DNA from: a virus
Strand: one strand, 5' to 3'
Virus genome (UHGV): UHGV-0348126
Length of the DNA: 35,770 nt
Within the stretch, counting starts at the first letter, position 1; the number at the start of each line of letters is the position of its first letter. Below, piece after piece: positions 26,289 through 30,333 of the stretch. Below the pieces are notes generated by a model. It was not told the origin of the DNA. It did no database searches and saw only the letters and a program-made list of their open reading frames with translations. The position numbers were made by a program, and so were the translations under genes.

Positions 26289-26509
26289 GCTGCACCTCCG
26301 AGATGCTTCATGTTTTTTCCGGAGCGAAAGGCTATAAGCGGCATACTGACGCGGTAATTACGGCCCAGCGGTTCACAAACCACCTTCTGACATTCACGGT
26401 CAACCAGGCTAACACGTAGAACATGCCCTGCAGGCGTGGTGTACCACTGACCCGGACGAGGACAACGGAAAGTCTGATTGGTAAAACGTTTGAAAATATT
26501 CCGGATCAT
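26285..26509 (-). CDS. hypothetical protein
   Basis: 74-aa ORF with ATGA overlaps to Rha (upstream) and the replication initiator (downstream). Confidence 0.4.
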   Translation of the reverse strand: MIRNIFKRFTNQTFRCPRPGQWYTTPAGHVLRVSLVDRECQKVVCEPLGRNYRVSMPLIAFRSGKNMKHLGGAA

Positions 26510-27657
26510 TTGCGCCCCCTTACCTCTGAAGGGTTCAGCGACAAATTTATGAGGCAGGCCAGCGCCGAAGCATCATTAATATAGTCATATAAGCTAACAG
26601 CCAGCGGAGATTCGGCTTTTGCCAACATAGGATAAAGCTGCTGCAGCCAGACCTGATGAATTGATGAAATGTAGGAACAGAGAACGCTGGCGTTATGTGC
26701 AACGTCGCTCGGTACAGCGGGCTTTGAAAGCTGTTTCTCCATCTGGTTAAAGGCATTGATGTATGCCTCTTTGAACTGGGCAGCACGTTTACCCGTGAAA
26801 CCCATAGCAAGAAACGCAAAGCCGTCGCGGGTTATTTGATAGCAAGGTAGTTTGCGGCCTGTGCAATCGGTGTAATCACTCACCGAAAAATTGCGGGCAG
26901 TGAATGATGCGGAGCATTCAAGCGTGCGGATCTTTTTCAGTACATCGTCATGACGTTTGGAGAAGAAGTTGGCAACAGCCAGGGATGAAGTAACAGCCTG
27001 ACCATCAACGATGGCAATTTCAGGTTGAGTGAGGGTTGGGATCGTAGCCATGATGGCAGCCTCTTTGGTGATTTTAAATAACTCACCACCAAGGCTTTCC
27101 ACGACCTTATTGGTGGTGAGACGTACAGGGGTGGAAATACCGGTCACCAAAGAACCCGGCCCAACCGAAGTTGGCCCTGCACGCCCCACCATAATTTGGG
27201 CGTAATGCTGCTCATGACACAAAAAAACCGCAAGAGCGCGGTTGTGCGCTTTGGTGAATTCCGGGTTTCCACGCCCGGCACCCGCTTTATAAGGTGCCTG
27301 AACAGTGTAACGTCCCGGAATGGCAGAATCAATGTGCTGGTGGTCCTTCACACTCAACAAAATCACGCCTGAATTTCCACAAAGGACTAAAGCACTCATG
27401 CGGGTAGTCTTTGCGAAGATAGATAACGCGCTGTGTTTCTGGCTCCCAACGAATAACATGAACATAAAGTCCTCTTCCGTCACGAAACCAGCGGTTAAGT
27501 TCCTGCACAACTCGCCCCCCACAGTCAGGTAAAGTTCTCTGTGGTTACTTACAGCCAGGTGATTTGGTAATCTGCATTCATGCCGTAACAACAGGTGTTC
27601 AGCCACGCGGACCACCAGCTGTTGCGACCAACGGTTATTTGCCGTTAAACTGTTCAT
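26506..27657 (-). CDS. Rha-family regulatory protein; Rha-like domain occupies 26506..27051 (alternative start ATG 27051), preceded in frame by a 202-codon extension of unknown function
   Basis: C-terminal 181 aa (MATIPTLTQPEIAIVDGQAVTSSLAVANFFSKRHDDVLKKIRTLE...) recalled as Rha-like, with AAAGAGG RBS 9 nt upstream of ATG 27051; the full ORF start at 27657 overlaps the upstream gene stop as ATGA. Confidence 0.55.
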   Translation of the reverse strand: MNSLTANNRWSQQLVVRVAEHLLLRHECRLPNHLAVSNHRELYLTVGGELCRNLTAGFVTEEDFMFMLFVGSQKHSALSIFAKTTRMSALVLCGNSGVILLSVKDHQHIDSAIPGRYTVQAPYKAGAGRGNPEFTKAHNRALAVFLCHEQHYAQIMVGRAGPTSVGPGSLVTGISTPVRLTTNKVVESLGGELFKITKEAAIMATIPTLTQPEIAIVDGQAVTSSLAVANFFSKRHDDVLKKIRTLECSASFTARNFSVSDYTDCTGRKLPCYQITRDGFAFLAMGFTGKRAAQFKEAYINAFNQMEKQLSKPAVPSDVAHNASVLCSYISSIHQVWLQQLYPMLAKAESPLAVSLYDYINDASALACLINLSLNPSEVRGRK

Positions 27658-28205
27658 GCGTTAGTTTCTCCACAGACACAAAACGCCACGACGCCCGGAG
27701 CTGCACACTCGCGGGCGTCACTCTTTTCTGGAACGCAGAAAATTTTGTAGACCAGTGCCGCATGTTCCTGGAGCTTCGAAATCGACAGATACAACTCATC
27801 ATTAATTGCTGTCTGCTCATGTGGCTCCACTACCCCGTCTTCGATTGCCGAACGAATCTGCTTTGAGTAACTCCCGATCTGTTCAATAACTTCCAGTAGA
27901 CGTTGGTTGATATCAGCGTTCTCTACTTCCTCAATTTCTGGAAGTGATACAAACACCCCACCAGCAGACTGTGCGACAGCATCCGCAATGTGGTGAGTAC
28001 CAGCCGCACGCTGTAAAACCATTGCCCATCCCAACGGAAAAAACTGATCGCCATCGGCACGAAGGCGGTTGAATAAAGCGTTCTCTGTTACATCCAGCCA
28101 CTCAGCAGCTTCAGCGTAACCCCCCGGCAACGCCGCGATAGTTTTTCTGACAGCTTTCACGTACCACTCAGGCTGTTTTTCCACTTTCCAGTGATGCTTA
28201 CCCAC
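27654..28205 (-). CDS. putative CII-like / YdaT-like early regulator
   Basis: 183-aa ORF directly after cro, overlapping its stop; assignment by position and weak recall only. Confidence 0.35.
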   Translation of the reverse strand: MGKHHWKVEKQPEWYVKAVRKTIAALPGGYAEAAEWLDVTENALFNRLRADGDQFFPLGWAMVLQRAAGTHHIADAVAQSAGGVFVSLPEIEEVENADINQRLLEVIEQIGSYSKQIRSAIEDGVVEPHEQTAINDELYLSISKLQEHAALVYKIFCVPEKSDARECAAPGVVAFCVCGETNA

Positions 28206-28458
28206 GGCTTACCTCCTGTTCCTGTGGTTTTAACTCATTCCGGTTTTGACTAGATTGAAAGCGTGCAGGATAGAGAATCTGCATTTCGCTGATTTCTCCC
28301 TTAAAAAAATTGGCCAAACGCTCTGCAAGATCGATAGATGGAATTTGTTCCAGTCTCTCAATACGACTCAGCGTTGCTGGATTAACCTGAACGCCCGCAG
28401 CAACATGCTGCAAAGTAAAGCCGTGCGCCTTACGCACATTTCGTAATGGTGATTGCAT
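28198..28458 (-). CDS. Cro-like repressor (XRE-family HTH)
   Basis: 86-aa ORF divergent from CI; HTH-like LQHVAAGVQVNPATLSRIERLEQIPSIDLAERLANFF; GTGGAGG RBS 5 nt upstream of ATG. Confidence 0.75.
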   Translation of the reverse strand: MQSPLRNVRKAHGFTLQHVAAGVQVNPATLSRIERLEQIPSIDLAERLANFFKGEISEMQILYPARFQSSQNRNELKPQEQEVSRG

Positions 28459-28555
28459 ATAACCTCCACATATTGCGTGATGAGCATATTATTTCACGCA
28501 AATATTTTGCGCAAGTTGATTTGCTTAACGCGCAATAAAGAAATGTAATAAACGC
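28459..28555. promoter_or_regulatory. divergent immunity control region (OR-like): PR for cro plus operator repeats
   Basis: Minus-strand TTGCGC (plus 28509..28514) -17 bp- TAATAT (plus 28486..28491) fits a sigma70 promoter for cro; inverted repeat TTGCGTGA-N13-TCACGCAA (28472..28500) overlaps the -10; TTGCTTAACGCGCAA (28521..28535) matches TTGC-N7-GCAA. Confidence 0.55.
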
Positions 28556-29248
28556 ATGAACATAGGAAACCGAGTCAGACAACTTCGCCAGGCGAAGAAC
28601 ATGAAAATCGCCGATCTCGCTGAAGCAATAGGAGTGGATGCGGCGAATATCTCGCGCCTGGAAACAGGTAAGCAGAAACAATTCACTGAACAAGCCCTGA
28701 GTAATATTGCCAGGAGCTTAGGTGTTGATATTGCTGATCTCTTTACCTCAGACGTCAAAAGTAATACTGTATGTAAAAACAGTATTAGTGAGGATGTTGC
28801 GCAGGTGAAGGATGTATTCCGTATTGAAATGCTGGATGTCAGTGCCAGTGCGGGAAATGGCCTTATCCAGGGCGGTGATGTCATTGATGTGATTCATGCC
28901 ATTGAATACAGAACTGATAATGCTGTATCGATGTTTGGCGGACGACCAGCCAATCACATTAAAGTTATCAACGTTCGTGGGGACAGTATGTGTCCAACCA
29001 TTGAGCCAGGAGATCTCATCTTCGTTGATGTCAGTATCAATCAGTTTGATGGAGATGGTATCTATGTATTTGGTTTTGATGATAAAATTTATGTCAAACG
29101 ACTGCAAATGATACCTGACAAACTACTGGTGATTTCTGATAACCAGATTTACCGTGAATGGGGAATTACCAGCGAAAATGAACACCGGTTTATGGTCTTT
29201 GGAAAGGTCTTAATCAGCCAGTCACAAACCCTTAAACGACACAATTAA
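28556..29248 (+). CDS. CI-like repressor (HTH plus S24 LexA-like autopeptidase domain)
   Basis: 230-aa ORF; N-terminal HTH (RVRQLRQAKNMKIADLAEAIGVDAANISRLETGK); C-terminal S24 motifs GDSMCPTI (Ser) and VKRL (Lys). Confidence 0.9.
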   Translation: MNIGNRVRQLRQAKNMKIADLAEAIGVDAANISRLETGKQKQFTEQALSNIARSLGVDIADLFTSDVKSNTVCKNSISEDVAQVKDVFRIEMLDVSASAGNGLIQGGDVIDVIHAIEYRTDNAVSMFGGRPANHIKVINVRGDSMCPTIEPGDLIFVDVSINQFDGDGIYVFGFDDKIYVKRLQMIPDKLLVISDNQIYREWGITSENEHRFMVFGKVLISQSQTLKRHN

Positions 29249-29268
29249 CCCTTACTTCCTCATCAATT

Positions 29269-29293
29269 AGCCACCCGAAGGTGGCTTTTCATT
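29269..29293 (+). terminator. intrinsic terminator after cI
   Basis: AGCCACC-CGAA-GGTGGCT perfect 7-bp stem followed by TTTCATT, 20 nt after the cI stop. Confidence 0.65.
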
Positions 29294-29303
29294 ACCCACC
29301 AAA

Positions 29304-29356
29304 TTGCATATCTCGCAATAAAAACACTTGCACAATGCGCAACTTCATTTTATCTT
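29304..29356 (+). promoter_or_regulatory. OL-like operators with candidate leftward early promoter
   Basis: TTGCATATCTCGCAA (29304..29318) and TTGCACAATGCGCAA (29328..29342) share TTGC-N7-GCAA with the OR-side site; TTGCAC -17 bp- TATCTT (29351..29356) is a possible -35/-10. Confidence 0.45.
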
Positions 29357-29787
29357 TCTTTCCAGACCAACAAACAAGGTACTAACAAAATTTGGTTGTA
29401 ACACGGCGTATGGCACATGCGTCGTTAGCGGTCTGGGGACGTTAAAGGGGACAATCCACTCCTTGCTCGGGCAAACAAACCAGGTAGCCGGAATGTGCAA
29501 GTCAATGATGATGCTGATAAGACGCCTAACCAGCGTGGCGATCCGGTTTGACGCCTGGGAAGAGACCAGGGTGCAACGATGAGGGCATTTATGGAGCCGC
29601 GACAAAGTGTGGTGCCGTAACTGGCTAAGTGCTCTCAGCGTTGTGGTGAAGGCGCAGGCTGATGCGCGAAAGACATTGCAGCTATTGCGGAAAAGAGCTG
29701 TTCGGCGGGGCAATTAAACGCCCGTGAGAGTCTGAAATAACCGCAAGCCGGAGATCAGCACCGGTCACCACAACAGCCACTGCTTTG

Positions 29788-29835
29788 GCGGTACCAGTTT
29801 GTACACTTGCTTCCGGCTGGTACCGCTCTTTTTAC
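29788..29835 (+). terminator. leader hairpin with T-run (terminator-like) carrying a boxA-like sequence
   Basis: GCGGTACCAG (29788..29797) pairs with CTGGTACCGC (29817..29826), then TCTTTTTAC; the 3' arm and T-run read CGCTCTTTTTAC, close to nut/rrn boxA (CGCTCTTA / GCTCTTTAACAA). Confidence 0.4.
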
Positions 29836-29970
29836 AAAACAGAGAAGAGCATCACCGGACGACGGGCTCATAACCCAATCCATCCGGGCGGCTGCCACCG
29901 CAGGTGTTCTTCTCTGTTTTGTGGAGAAACCAACCGACCTTGCAGGGTCGATATGATGAGGAGCAGCAAA

Positions 29971-30333
29971 ATGGCTAGCGAACGCAGTACTGATGTGCAG
30001 GCATTTATCGGGGAGCTGGACGGCGGCGTATTTGAAACCAAAATCGGCGCAGTTCTCAGTGAAGTCGCTTCCGGTGTGATGAACACGAAAACCAAAGGGA
30101 AGGTCTCACTCAACCTGGAAATCGAACCATTTGATGAGAACCGTGTGAAAATCAAACACAAACTCTCATATGTTCGCCCGACTAACCGCGGGAAAATTTC
30201 CGAAGAAGACACCACCGAAACGCCGATGTATGTCAATCGCGGTGGTCGCCTGACTATTCTGCAGGAAGACCAGGGACAGTTACTGACTCTTGCCGGTGAA
30301 CCTGACGGAAAACTCCGCGCAGCAGGTCGTTAA
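29971..30333 (+). CDS. hypothetical early protein, YfdP-like (start at internal ATG 29971)
   Basis: GAGGAG RBS 7 nt upstream of ATG 29971 (MASERSTDVQAF..., 120 aa); first gene after the structured leader; the upstream part of the track ORF is unlikely to be coding. Name by memory of the E. coli CPS-53 gene order. Confidence 0.5.
   Translation: MASERSTDVQAFIGELDGGVFETKIGAVLSEVASGVMNTKTKGKVSLNLEIEPFDENRVKIKHKLSYVRPTNRGKISEEDTTETPMYVNRGGRLTILQEDQGQLLTLAGEPDGKLRAAGR

Follow-up and report, generated by a model that had tools for sequence, protein, structure and literature searches.

The phage-borne RNAs GOLLD and ROOL lie next to tRNA genes, and RNAs C and D of phage T4 are small stable RNAs of unknown function that are encoded within the T4 tRNA cluster and processed together with the tRNAs. 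The C4, isrK and P4 CI antisense RNAs are cut from an operon leader by RNase P. In HK022, a lambdoid phage without N, the putL and putR sites give a structured RNA of about 70 nt with two stem-loops between early promoter and terminators, one copy in each early operon. GOLLD and ROOL are the subject of PMC12286853, and rnaC and rnaD are mentioned in PMC9697503. Here we describe a locus that shares features with all of these systems, in a stretch of 35,770 nucleotides of the virus genome UHGV-0348126 (the whole stretch is called the window below). The locus, 29357-29970, precedes the early-left operon, which in the lambda sense of the term runs rightward, on the + strand, in the window. An earlier note, made from the sequence alone, had described it as a structured leader of about 600 nt with terminator-like hairpins and a boxA-like element, upstream of an operon that might be expressed through cis-acting antitermination. 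The region is a mosaic of independently folding + strand RNA modules and not a simple leader, and on balance we favour reading it as a cassette of non-coding RNA genes rather than an untranslated 5' region.

Folded as a whole, the 614 nt of 29357-29970 beat every shuffled sequence on both strands (z = -4.75 and -5.18); because both strands fold far better than shuffles, the folding energy alone gives no strand. BLAST searches against phage records yielded no single block but nested pieces with sharp breakpoints. The piece 29390-29567 resembled P1 and P7, 29403-29646 phiV10-like podophages, 29627-29775 the P1-like phage JL22 and Klebsiella phage IME207, 29628-29669 many Klebsiella phages, 29785-29975 SfV, SfIV and many E. 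coli prophages, and 29828-29934 Salmonella phages. The matching pieces in other phages are unannotated DNA beside same-strand tRNA genes, and the modules recur in unrelated phages (i.e., in the P1 ban operon and in phiV10/epsilon15-like, Klebsiella and Pseudomonas phages), virulent phages among them. The order in the window is a module that we call A1, an S-type unit, a C-type unit, a terminator, a second S-type unit, and the Shine-Dalgarno (SD) sequence and ATG of a yfdP-like gene.

Module A1 (29391-29570, + strand) is a multi-helix RNA of about 180 nt with 91 distinct variants in IMG/VR, in which near-invariant blocks are split by two variable hairpins. A consensus fold obtained with RNAalifold on the raw MAFFT alignment was poor, and 16 diverse sequences were usable. 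Among these, three helices carry 5-9 double changes each and a fourth carries 2-3. The supported helices contain 34 G.U cells versus no A.C cells, and therefore the + strand is the RNA strand. In the same 16-sequence fold, the near-invariant block UGGCACAUG has two competing pairings, either within a local hairpin or with AUGUGC about 80 nt away. The link of A1 to tRNA genes is strand-specific, as 56 of 125 copies in IMG/VR abut a tRNA gene on the same strand and none has one on the opposite strand. In phiV10-like phages, A1 and its S hairpin end precisely at the start of tRNA-Arg(UCU). A1 follows trnI in P1 and P7, and in P1 it begins two bases after that gene. In three IMG/VR prophage contigs (L364, L369 and L370), what follows the A1-S pair is not C; the sequence there resembles the 'dicF-like region' of P1 (GGCGCGGCGGUAAGUAUGGC...). 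By these sequence comparisons, the slot after S appears to take different RNA cargos, i.e., C, tRNA-Arg or a DicF-like RNA.

The C family was defined here by a scan of viral contigs with a 17-mer of its 3' hairpin, which gave 148 sites, 129 of them with the 5' hairpin upstream. Its members have a closing stem of 9 to about 17 bp followed by two unpaired A residues, a nearly invariant 5' hairpin (UGCGC-AGGCUGA-GCGCA), a hypervariable middle of 24-160 nt, and a 3' hairpin (GCCGG-AGAUCAGCA-CCGGC). The unit at 29640-29774 (+ strand) belongs to this family, with 1 and 0 mismatches to the motifs (A)AUGCGCAGGCUGAUGCGC and GCCGGAGAUCAGCACCGG and with 36.5 bits (E = 5e-8) from model R1, which was built from C cores. 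Its closing stem is formed by 29640-29648 and 29766-29774, its 5' hairpin by 29652-29667 and its 3' hairpin by 29747-29765, with a variable middle of 77 nt, and the core motifs are single-copy in the window. In 83 distinct C cores, 83.7% of the cells were paired versus 69.4% in shuffles, with none of 500 shuffles reaching the observed values, and no more than 43.5% were paired when the partners were slid by 1-3 columns. Changes on both sides were found in 19 of 24 pairs, and all 14 closing-stem pairs covary; pair 13-70, for example, is UA in 38 cores, GC in 35, CG in 3, AU in 1 and unpaired in 6. The ratio of G.U to A.C was 31:7 in the well-paired columns, to which the counts were restricted, the ratio over all closing-stem columns (38:47) being uninformative. 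Additionally, the two hairpin loops, GCUGA (29658-29662) and UCAGC (29755-29759), are complementary. Among loop variants that were chosen on purpose, 4 were doubly compensated (GCCGA/UCGGC), 22 had wobble-compatible single changes and 15 were disruptive, which is supportive of, but not conclusive for, a loop-loop pairing kept by compensatory change.

Relatives of C are also present in Pseudomonas phages. A scan of genome contigs with the 17-mer CCGGAGATCAGCACCGG gave, among the 120 matches listed, 114 chance occurrences in GC-rich genomes and about 3 real ones, one of them in Stutzerimonas stutzeri. Hammerhead, twister and pistol ribozymes were considered for the C core and rejected (no Rfam match; GAAA after CUGAUG not conserved), as was an integron attC site, whose RYYYAAC/GUURRRY the core does not fit. 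T-arm-like hairpins (NNNNGUUCGAGUCNNNN) were noticed in the hypervariable middles of four C inserts (L137, L142, L213 and L152), and two such hairpins lie just past the C unit of a Pseudomonas-type locus (downstream of L148).

The neighbourhood of the C units was also informative. In JL22, IME207, KP591P1 and Kp4882-1, the neighbours of the C piece include tRNA-Thr, Ser, Arg and Met genes, and 21 of the 148 C loci have a same-strand tRNA gene within 700 nt versus none with a tRNA gene on the opposite strand. Terminator-like sites 3' of C units were found on the same strand at 34 of 120 unique loci, as compared with 6 of 120 on the other strand. At five loci (L175, L190, L132, L197 and L201) the C unit is followed by a clean terminator, and at some of these (e.g., L175) by an apparent new promoter after it. 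The neighbour-gene search identified no constant protein neighbour, which speaks for an RNA working either by itself or together with host factors. The sole recurrent neighbour gene was that of a cI-like S24 repressor, located upstream on the same strand at 57 loci from 14 insert groups, and the window has this same repressor-upstream location.

S-type units were defined here by an outer helix (CAAC../..GUUG) and an inner helix of 8-11 bp whose end is AUU/AGU, with a small internal loop or bulge between the two helices and a variable insert enclosed by them. They usually lie directly 5' of a C unit and precede most C units in unrelated phages. Both helices covary, across an enterobacterial form (CACAAC-A-GGUAAGAGCA...UGCUCUUUCC-GUUGUG) and another form (CAACACG-CA-UGGGGAUUG...CAGUCCCCA-GC-CGUGUUG). 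The two units of the window were placed in the family by inspection and by their compensatory variants. The first, 'A2' (29574-29643, + strand), is a long closing hairpin, CAACG-A-UGAGGGCAUUU/AAGUGCUCUCA-G-CGUUG, which encloses a small hairpin (-31.1 kcal/mol, z = -4.4). The second, 'D' (29834-29922, + strand), has a 20-bp closing stem (29834-29853/29903-29922) around nested hairpins (-45.5 kcal/mol, z = -7.3), comprising an inner helix around a GGGCUCAUAACCC hairpin and a GCGG/CCGC hairpin, and the S consensus can be aligned with its two strands, ACAAAACAGAGAAGAGCAUC and GGUGUUCUUCUCUGUUUUGU. In this unit, G-C switches to A-U with full correlation (125 and 4 cases), the GCGG/CCGC of its inner hairpin becomes GCUG/CAGC in Salmonella phages, and two G.U pairs fix the + strand. 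Its insert motif GGGYUCAUAWCCCAAUC occurs twice more in the P1 ban leader. The earlier note had seen here a second long-range stem with nested hairpins followed by TTTTG; the 20-bp stem is real, but TTTTG lies inside it and is no terminator tail, and the structure is an S-type RNA unit, not a terminator.

The outer helix of S and the closing stem of C share 4-6 nt (GUUG, 29640-29643, in the window, and likewise in L130, L174, L146 and L190). The shared nucleotides pair with either an upstream or a downstream CACAAC-type segment, the two pairings being mutually exclusive, and the overlap has been kept though the sequences covaried; it might act as a switch or a junction, or might have arisen as a by-product of tandem arrays. 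Some S and C inserts contain T-arm-like hairpins (GGGUUCGAGUCCC), and the S unit of Klebsiella phage KP591P1 scored 23 bits against the tRNA-Sec model (E = 0.028), which is below threshold. Altogether, the folding and covariance analysis across homologous prophages that the earlier note had proposed as a check gave strong folds, with covarying helices in C, A1 and S, and the two structures it had singled out, the first hairpin and the second stem, are kept in relatives by compensatory changes.

The first of these structures follows the C unit. Its stem (29787-29797/29817-29827) has 11 bp, including one G.U pair, around a 19-nt loop, with an energy of -21.2 kcal/mol (z = -3.8; none of 200 shuffles folded as well), and the tail CUUUUUAC stands directly 3' of it at 29828-29835. 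The loop is atypically large for an intrinsic terminator, and the consensus scan missed the hairpin because this loop exceeds 8 nt. Hairpin and tail are kept in 40 of 40 upstream variants, and in Salmonella phage F1055 the CUUUUUACA tail is unchanged although the stem before it (GUCGGCGUC...GACGCCGAC) is an entirely different one. The suggestion that the GC stem and U-run are terminator-like is borne out by these results. To judge from the sequences, 29787-29835 (+ strand) is a credible intrinsic terminator, and by analogy with C units elsewhere it would end the A1-S-C cassette; in essentially all 128 loci that carry the U-run and the second S unit, a C-type unit ends (CACCACAAC) a short way upstream. 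The consensus scan found no promoter-like site between the terminator and yfdP, and the operon would therefore depend on read-through.

The boxA-like string fared differently. It is present (CGCTCTTTTTACAA, 29825-29838), but its CGCUC is the 3' strand of the terminator stem and reads GUCC or GACC in relatives. Similarly, where the window has CGCUCUUUUUACA, SfV has GUCCUUUUUACA and Salmonella phage F1055 has GACCUUUUUACA, and the part that varies is the terminator stem. The locus is thus like lambda nut in that CGCUCUUUUUACAA, which resembles boxA, lies just after the tentative early-left promoter; it differs from nut in that the boxA-like bases are not conserved in relatives and that no N-like protein was found among the scanned early-left open reading frames (ORFs). 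The boxA likeness is coincidental.

Comparison with the databases did not assign the modules to a described family. Over the whole window, Rfam 15 at the gathering threshold gave only C4 and isrK, both in the right operon. The Rfam scan that had been proposed for the leader returned only noise in 29200-30050 at E up to 10, with no tRNA, tmRNA, Y RNA, GOLLD or ROOL match, and Rfam 15 gave no family match in the relatives either. ARAGORN found no tRNA gene in the window at default thresholds and only noise at lowered ones. Nothing in the literature searched describes these elements or contains their core sequences, although unnamed candidates in a csRNA catalogue (PMC10690425) may overlap them.

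The closest likeness in kind is to GOLLD and ROOL. Like these, the modules are phage-borne, have an elaborate covarying structure, no associated protein and no known function, and adjoin tRNA genes (56 of 125 A1 copies and 21 of 148 C loci, as given above). They differ in failing both Rfam models at E up to 10, in being separable modules of 70-180 nt that recombine independently instead of one RNA of 500-800 nt, and in having Gammaproteobacteria as hosts. Unlike rnaC and rnaD of T4, to which no sequence relation is apparent, the modules are also found at sites without tRNAs, such as the head of an early operon here. No match to the models of the C4, isrK and P4 CI antisense RNAs was seen for the modules of the left operon. 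The C unit resembles tRNA, YrlA Y RNA and the tRNA-like domain of tmRNA in its closing stem, two-nt linker, interacting loops and variable central arm, and the units fill tRNA-like slots in tRNA arrays; unlike tRNA, C has no CCA end, and its loop contact is of the Watson-Crick type (GCUGA/UCAGC), not a D-loop/T-loop contact.

If the region is a cassette of non-coding RNA genes, transcription would run rightward on the + strand from a repressor-proximal early-left promoter, tentatively placed at 29328-29356 (TTGCAC-17-TATCTT, read from the sequence), or possibly by read-through from cI. A1, the S hairpin unit and the C unit would be made first, and the polymerase would then meet the terminator at 29787-29835. 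Polymerases that stop there would release an RNA of about 450 nt, and those that read through a leaky terminator would go on to transcribe the second S unit and then the yfdP-like operon. Because stopped and read-through polymerases would give different products, the terminator would set how much structured RNA is made relative to early-left mRNA. The modules would probably be excised by the nucleases that mature tRNA precursors (RNase P or RNase E or, at the long stems, RNase III), because the same modules sit almost spacerless in tRNA clusters and because the layout of the C unit is tRNA-like, with an acceptor-like closing stem, two unpaired A, 5' and 3' hairpins with pairing loops, and a hypervariable middle. 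Once released, they would probably build up as stable, compact RNAs and work in trans at an early stage of induction; it is speculation that their target would most plausibly be host or rival-phage factors handling tRNAs. P1, where the modules are located in the leader of the ban operon controlled by the C1 repressor, offers the same regulatory setting. The idea in the earlier note that the leader may encode a small RNA was right in spirit, but the note overlooked that mobile RNA gene modules make up this 'leader' as a mosaic.

Several observations weigh against the cassette as just described. No expression, processing or stability data for these RNAs were found in the literature searched. There is no tRNA in the window, where a tRNA-linked function could therefore be irrelevant, and 127 of the 148 C loci have no tRNA nearby. 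The early-left promoter is weak by consensus, with a match at 7 of 12 consensus positions and no call from the consensus promoter scan, and its placement is tentative. The tRNA-like reading of C is drawn from topology only, ARAGORN and the Rfam tRNA models not recognising the unit. The high sequence identity of the enterobacterial copies may come partly from recent horizontal transfer. Finally, modules that stand directly before a terminator and an operon also have the layout of a cis-acting antiterminator.

That last layout is the strength of a put-like explanation, in which one or more of the folded modules, most likely C, would bind the polymerase that has made them and cause it to read through 29787-29835 and later terminators in place of N. 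The order of promoter, structured RNA (A1-S-C), terminator and operon fits, the cassette lying as in HK022 between an early promoter (the tentative 29328-29356) and a terminator (29787-29835) of a lambdoid phage without an N-like gene. The end of a C-type unit precedes essentially all of the 128 loci with a terminator and second S unit, and the lack of a promoter-like site between terminator and yfdP makes read-through necessary. The premises of the earlier note also hold, in that the cro-like gene overlaps the CII-like gene by 8 nt, which leaves no room between cro and the next gene, and the YfdP-like, DUF2303 and HD-domain products, which were the ORFs scanned, have no N-family match. However, HK022 has a put copy in each early operon, whereas the core motifs and model R1 found no counterpart in the right operon of the window, and the modules of relatives are not tied to promoters but are also found within tRNA arrays or behind tRNAs, as tandem copies, as stand-alone units and in virulent phages. 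In many cases a C unit stands last before a terminator, with an apparent new promoter beyond it, the middle of C is hypervariable (24 to 160 nt), and the modules are much larger than the put RNA. With no right-operon twin and no promoter link in relatives, and with a boxA that is not conserved, cis antitermination in either of the forms proposed, put-like or boxA-dependent, is therefore lowered, and we regard the put-like one as quite unlikely. A different role in cis, as punctuation for processing and stability, would make the long stems RNase III or RNase P/E sites that insulate the transcript from Rho and decay and mark the cuts between tRNA and mRNA, the excised pieces being functionless. 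The closing stems of 9-20 bp (often about 17 bp), the units that abut tRNAs and one another without spacers, the overlap of 4-6 nt between the outer helix of S and the closing stem of C, which recalls nested processing stems, and a GC-rich, long and untranslated region would all suit this role. Simple processing stems would have no need, though, of near-invariant loops (GGCUGAU, AGAUCAGCA) with a compensated loop-loop pairing or of the near-invariant single-stranded blocks of A1, and some units stand alone with their own terminator and without downstream cargo. We consider such punctuation doubtful, if worth keeping in mind.

Two further explanations were considered. Decay of former tRNA or tmRNA genes, leaving pseudogene remnants of a tRNA cluster that hitch-hike with recombination, could account for the T-arm-like hairpins and the sub-threshold tRNA-Sec match in some S units, for tmRNA-like tag frames upstream in P1 and Klebsiella phages, and for the tRNA-like candidates that ARAGORN reports at lowered thresholds only. 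This is very unlikely, however, because pseudogenes would not keep covarying helices or near-invariant loops, and strong purifying selection and compensatory changes are seen across phages of Enterobacteriaceae and Pseudomonas and in uncultured viral contigs. Protein genes on the minus strand, with the fold incidental, are suggested by GenBank annotation of hypothetical proteins in mEp460 (mEp460_036 and mEp460_037), by a 122-aa minus-strand ORF that is open in many variants, and by a 47-aa antisense ORF that matches phrog_3651 (E = 9e-28). This explanation is barely conceivable in view of the variable columns, which are spread 28:30:27 over the first, second and third codon positions in the 122-aa ORF, with no third-position excess, and of the length differences of +4 and +61 nt among relatives, which shift its frame. 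The ORF also spans modules that are found separately in other phages, and the G.U pairs, same-strand tRNAs and terminators indicate the + strand. On that strand, an 84-aa ORF is disrupted in 13 of 25 variants. No leader ORF has a Pfam match, and the homology search for a conserved protein-coding gene in the leader came down to the 47-aa antisense match, which covers only positions 88-127 of the 162 in phrog_3651 (40 positions). The claim that no convincing ORF precedes the ATG at 29971 therefore stands. The 47-aa ORF itself (29755-29898, - strand) runs over the second S unit and the terminator, and phrog_3651, a family of unknown function, may, by this comparison, have been built from antisense translations of a conserved RNA.

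Beyond the cassette of non-coding RNA genes as such, we offer as a tentative possibility that A1, S and C are an undescribed superfamily of tRNA-derived, kissing-loop 'pseudo-tRNA' RNAs, spread by recombination and released by the tRNA-processing machinery. They would act in trans on tRNA-handling host or rival-phage factors (e.g., as decoys for tRNA-targeting defence nucleases) or, alternatively, work with tmRNA-like tag templates. The superfamily would take in temperate and virulent phages of Enterobacteriaceae and Pseudomonas, including P1, SfV, mEp460 and Stx phages, as well as other viral contigs.

Tag frames of the tmRNA-like kind were observed after ACUGACC...AAAU in P1 (L003, about 415-465), JL22 (L004, about 1854), KP591P1 (L130, about 1264-1320) and UPM 2146 (L131, about 1306), the locus coordinates being given in brackets. 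The encoded tags are ANDDLMMVAA* for P1-like phages, ANEEMYLAVA* and ANEEMYLAAA* for Klebsiella siphophages and ANDNTFLAVA* for an Ackermannviridae phage, with the reading frame and a hydrophobic C-terminus preserved, and the S and C units of the same transcription units lie downstream of them. The Rfam tmRNA model gave them E = 0.01, below threshold; none was found in the window, and the literature search gave no match. In the P1 record AF234172 (about 69494-70209; positions 985-1700 of locus L003), S and C units form a chain on the strand of the ban operon, and this chain overlaps the minus-strand coding sequences plp and upl. The ban leader contains an R1 match at locus 1299-1416 (29.7 bits) and a second, SfV-type C unit at about 1560-1700. 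The genes plp and upl may be annotation artefacts or may overlap RNA genes.

The window itself is a lambdoid prophage of the mEp460/SfV type. Its leader shares 98.8% identity with that of phage mEp460 and 100% with an E. coli chromosome, and some part of the region is found in 2836 of 5426 complete E. coli genomes, 797 of which have at least 80% of it. In the K-12 prophage CPS-53, only about 45 nt are retained upstream of yfdP. The cI-like repressor gene (28556-29248, + strand), annotated as 'prophage repressor' in mEp460, is closed by an intrinsic terminator-like hairpin (29269-29286, + strand; 7-bp stem with 5 GC pairs, TTTTCATT tail), from which about 680 nt without an accepted gene extend to the ATG of the yfdP-like gene. 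Divergent from the repressor gene are the cro-like gene (28198-28458) and the CII-like gene (27654-28205, PF06892). An operator-like palindrome, TTGCACAATGCGCAA, overlaps the -35 of the tentative early-left promoter and resembles TTGCTTAACGCGCAA at 28521-28535 in the cI/cro intergenic region. Three palindromes of the TTGC-N6-CGCAA type were observed between cI and cro (28460-28540), ATTGCGTGA...TCACGCAAAT, TTGCGCAA and TTGCTTAACGCGCAA, and TTGCACAATGCGCAA (29326-29343) is a fourth at the tentative left promoter. By their sequence, these palindromes are candidate operators of the repressor.

Downstream of the second S unit, a small hairpin (29935-29950, + strand) precedes the ribosome-binding site; at -8.5 kcal/mol (z = -0.08) it folds no better than shuffles, and it is only partly conserved in SfV, so that its support is weak. 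The SD sequence GAGGAG (29958-29963, + strand) then leads to the first gene of the early-left operon, the yfdP-like gene (ATG at 29971, to 30333, 120 aa, + strand), which takes its name from RefSeq annotation in E. coli genomes. Its product matches phrog_204 (E = 1e-49) in an alignment that begins at residue 1, and it is followed by the DUF2303 gene and then by the HD-domain gene. On the - strand of the right operon, Rfam 15 places C4 at 27109-27196 (83.6 bits) and isrK at 27221-27297 (67 bits). These RNA genes sit within a 383-aa 'Rha/antirepressor' ORF (26506-27657; region 27018-27309) that mEp460 annotates in full, and the Pfam Phage_ASH match in this ORF (aa 117-213) is exactly the translated C4 and isrK genes. 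The true start of the ant/Rha gene is probably downstream of C4 and isrK, and Phage_ASH may have been built on translations of RNA genes.

Structured phage RNAs beside tRNA genes are already known (GOLLD, ROOL, T4 C and D), and it is in its modular architecture that the cassette described here differs. If this reading is true, annotation has so far missed a large family of strongly covarying structured RNAs in some of the most thoroughly studied phages (the P1 ban operon, SfV, mEp460 and cdtI/Stx-converting phages), and the family would be present in about half of the complete E. coli genomes. The annotated products mEp460 036/037, phrog_3651, P1 plp and upl, and perhaps Pfam Phage_ASH, may then be translations of RNA genes. 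The finding would also bear on how lambdoid phages without N pass a conserved terminator at the head of their early-left operon. Additionally, it would provide a genetic system in E. coli for the problem that GOLLD and ROOL pose, namely why phages keep ornate RNAs beside their tRNA genes.

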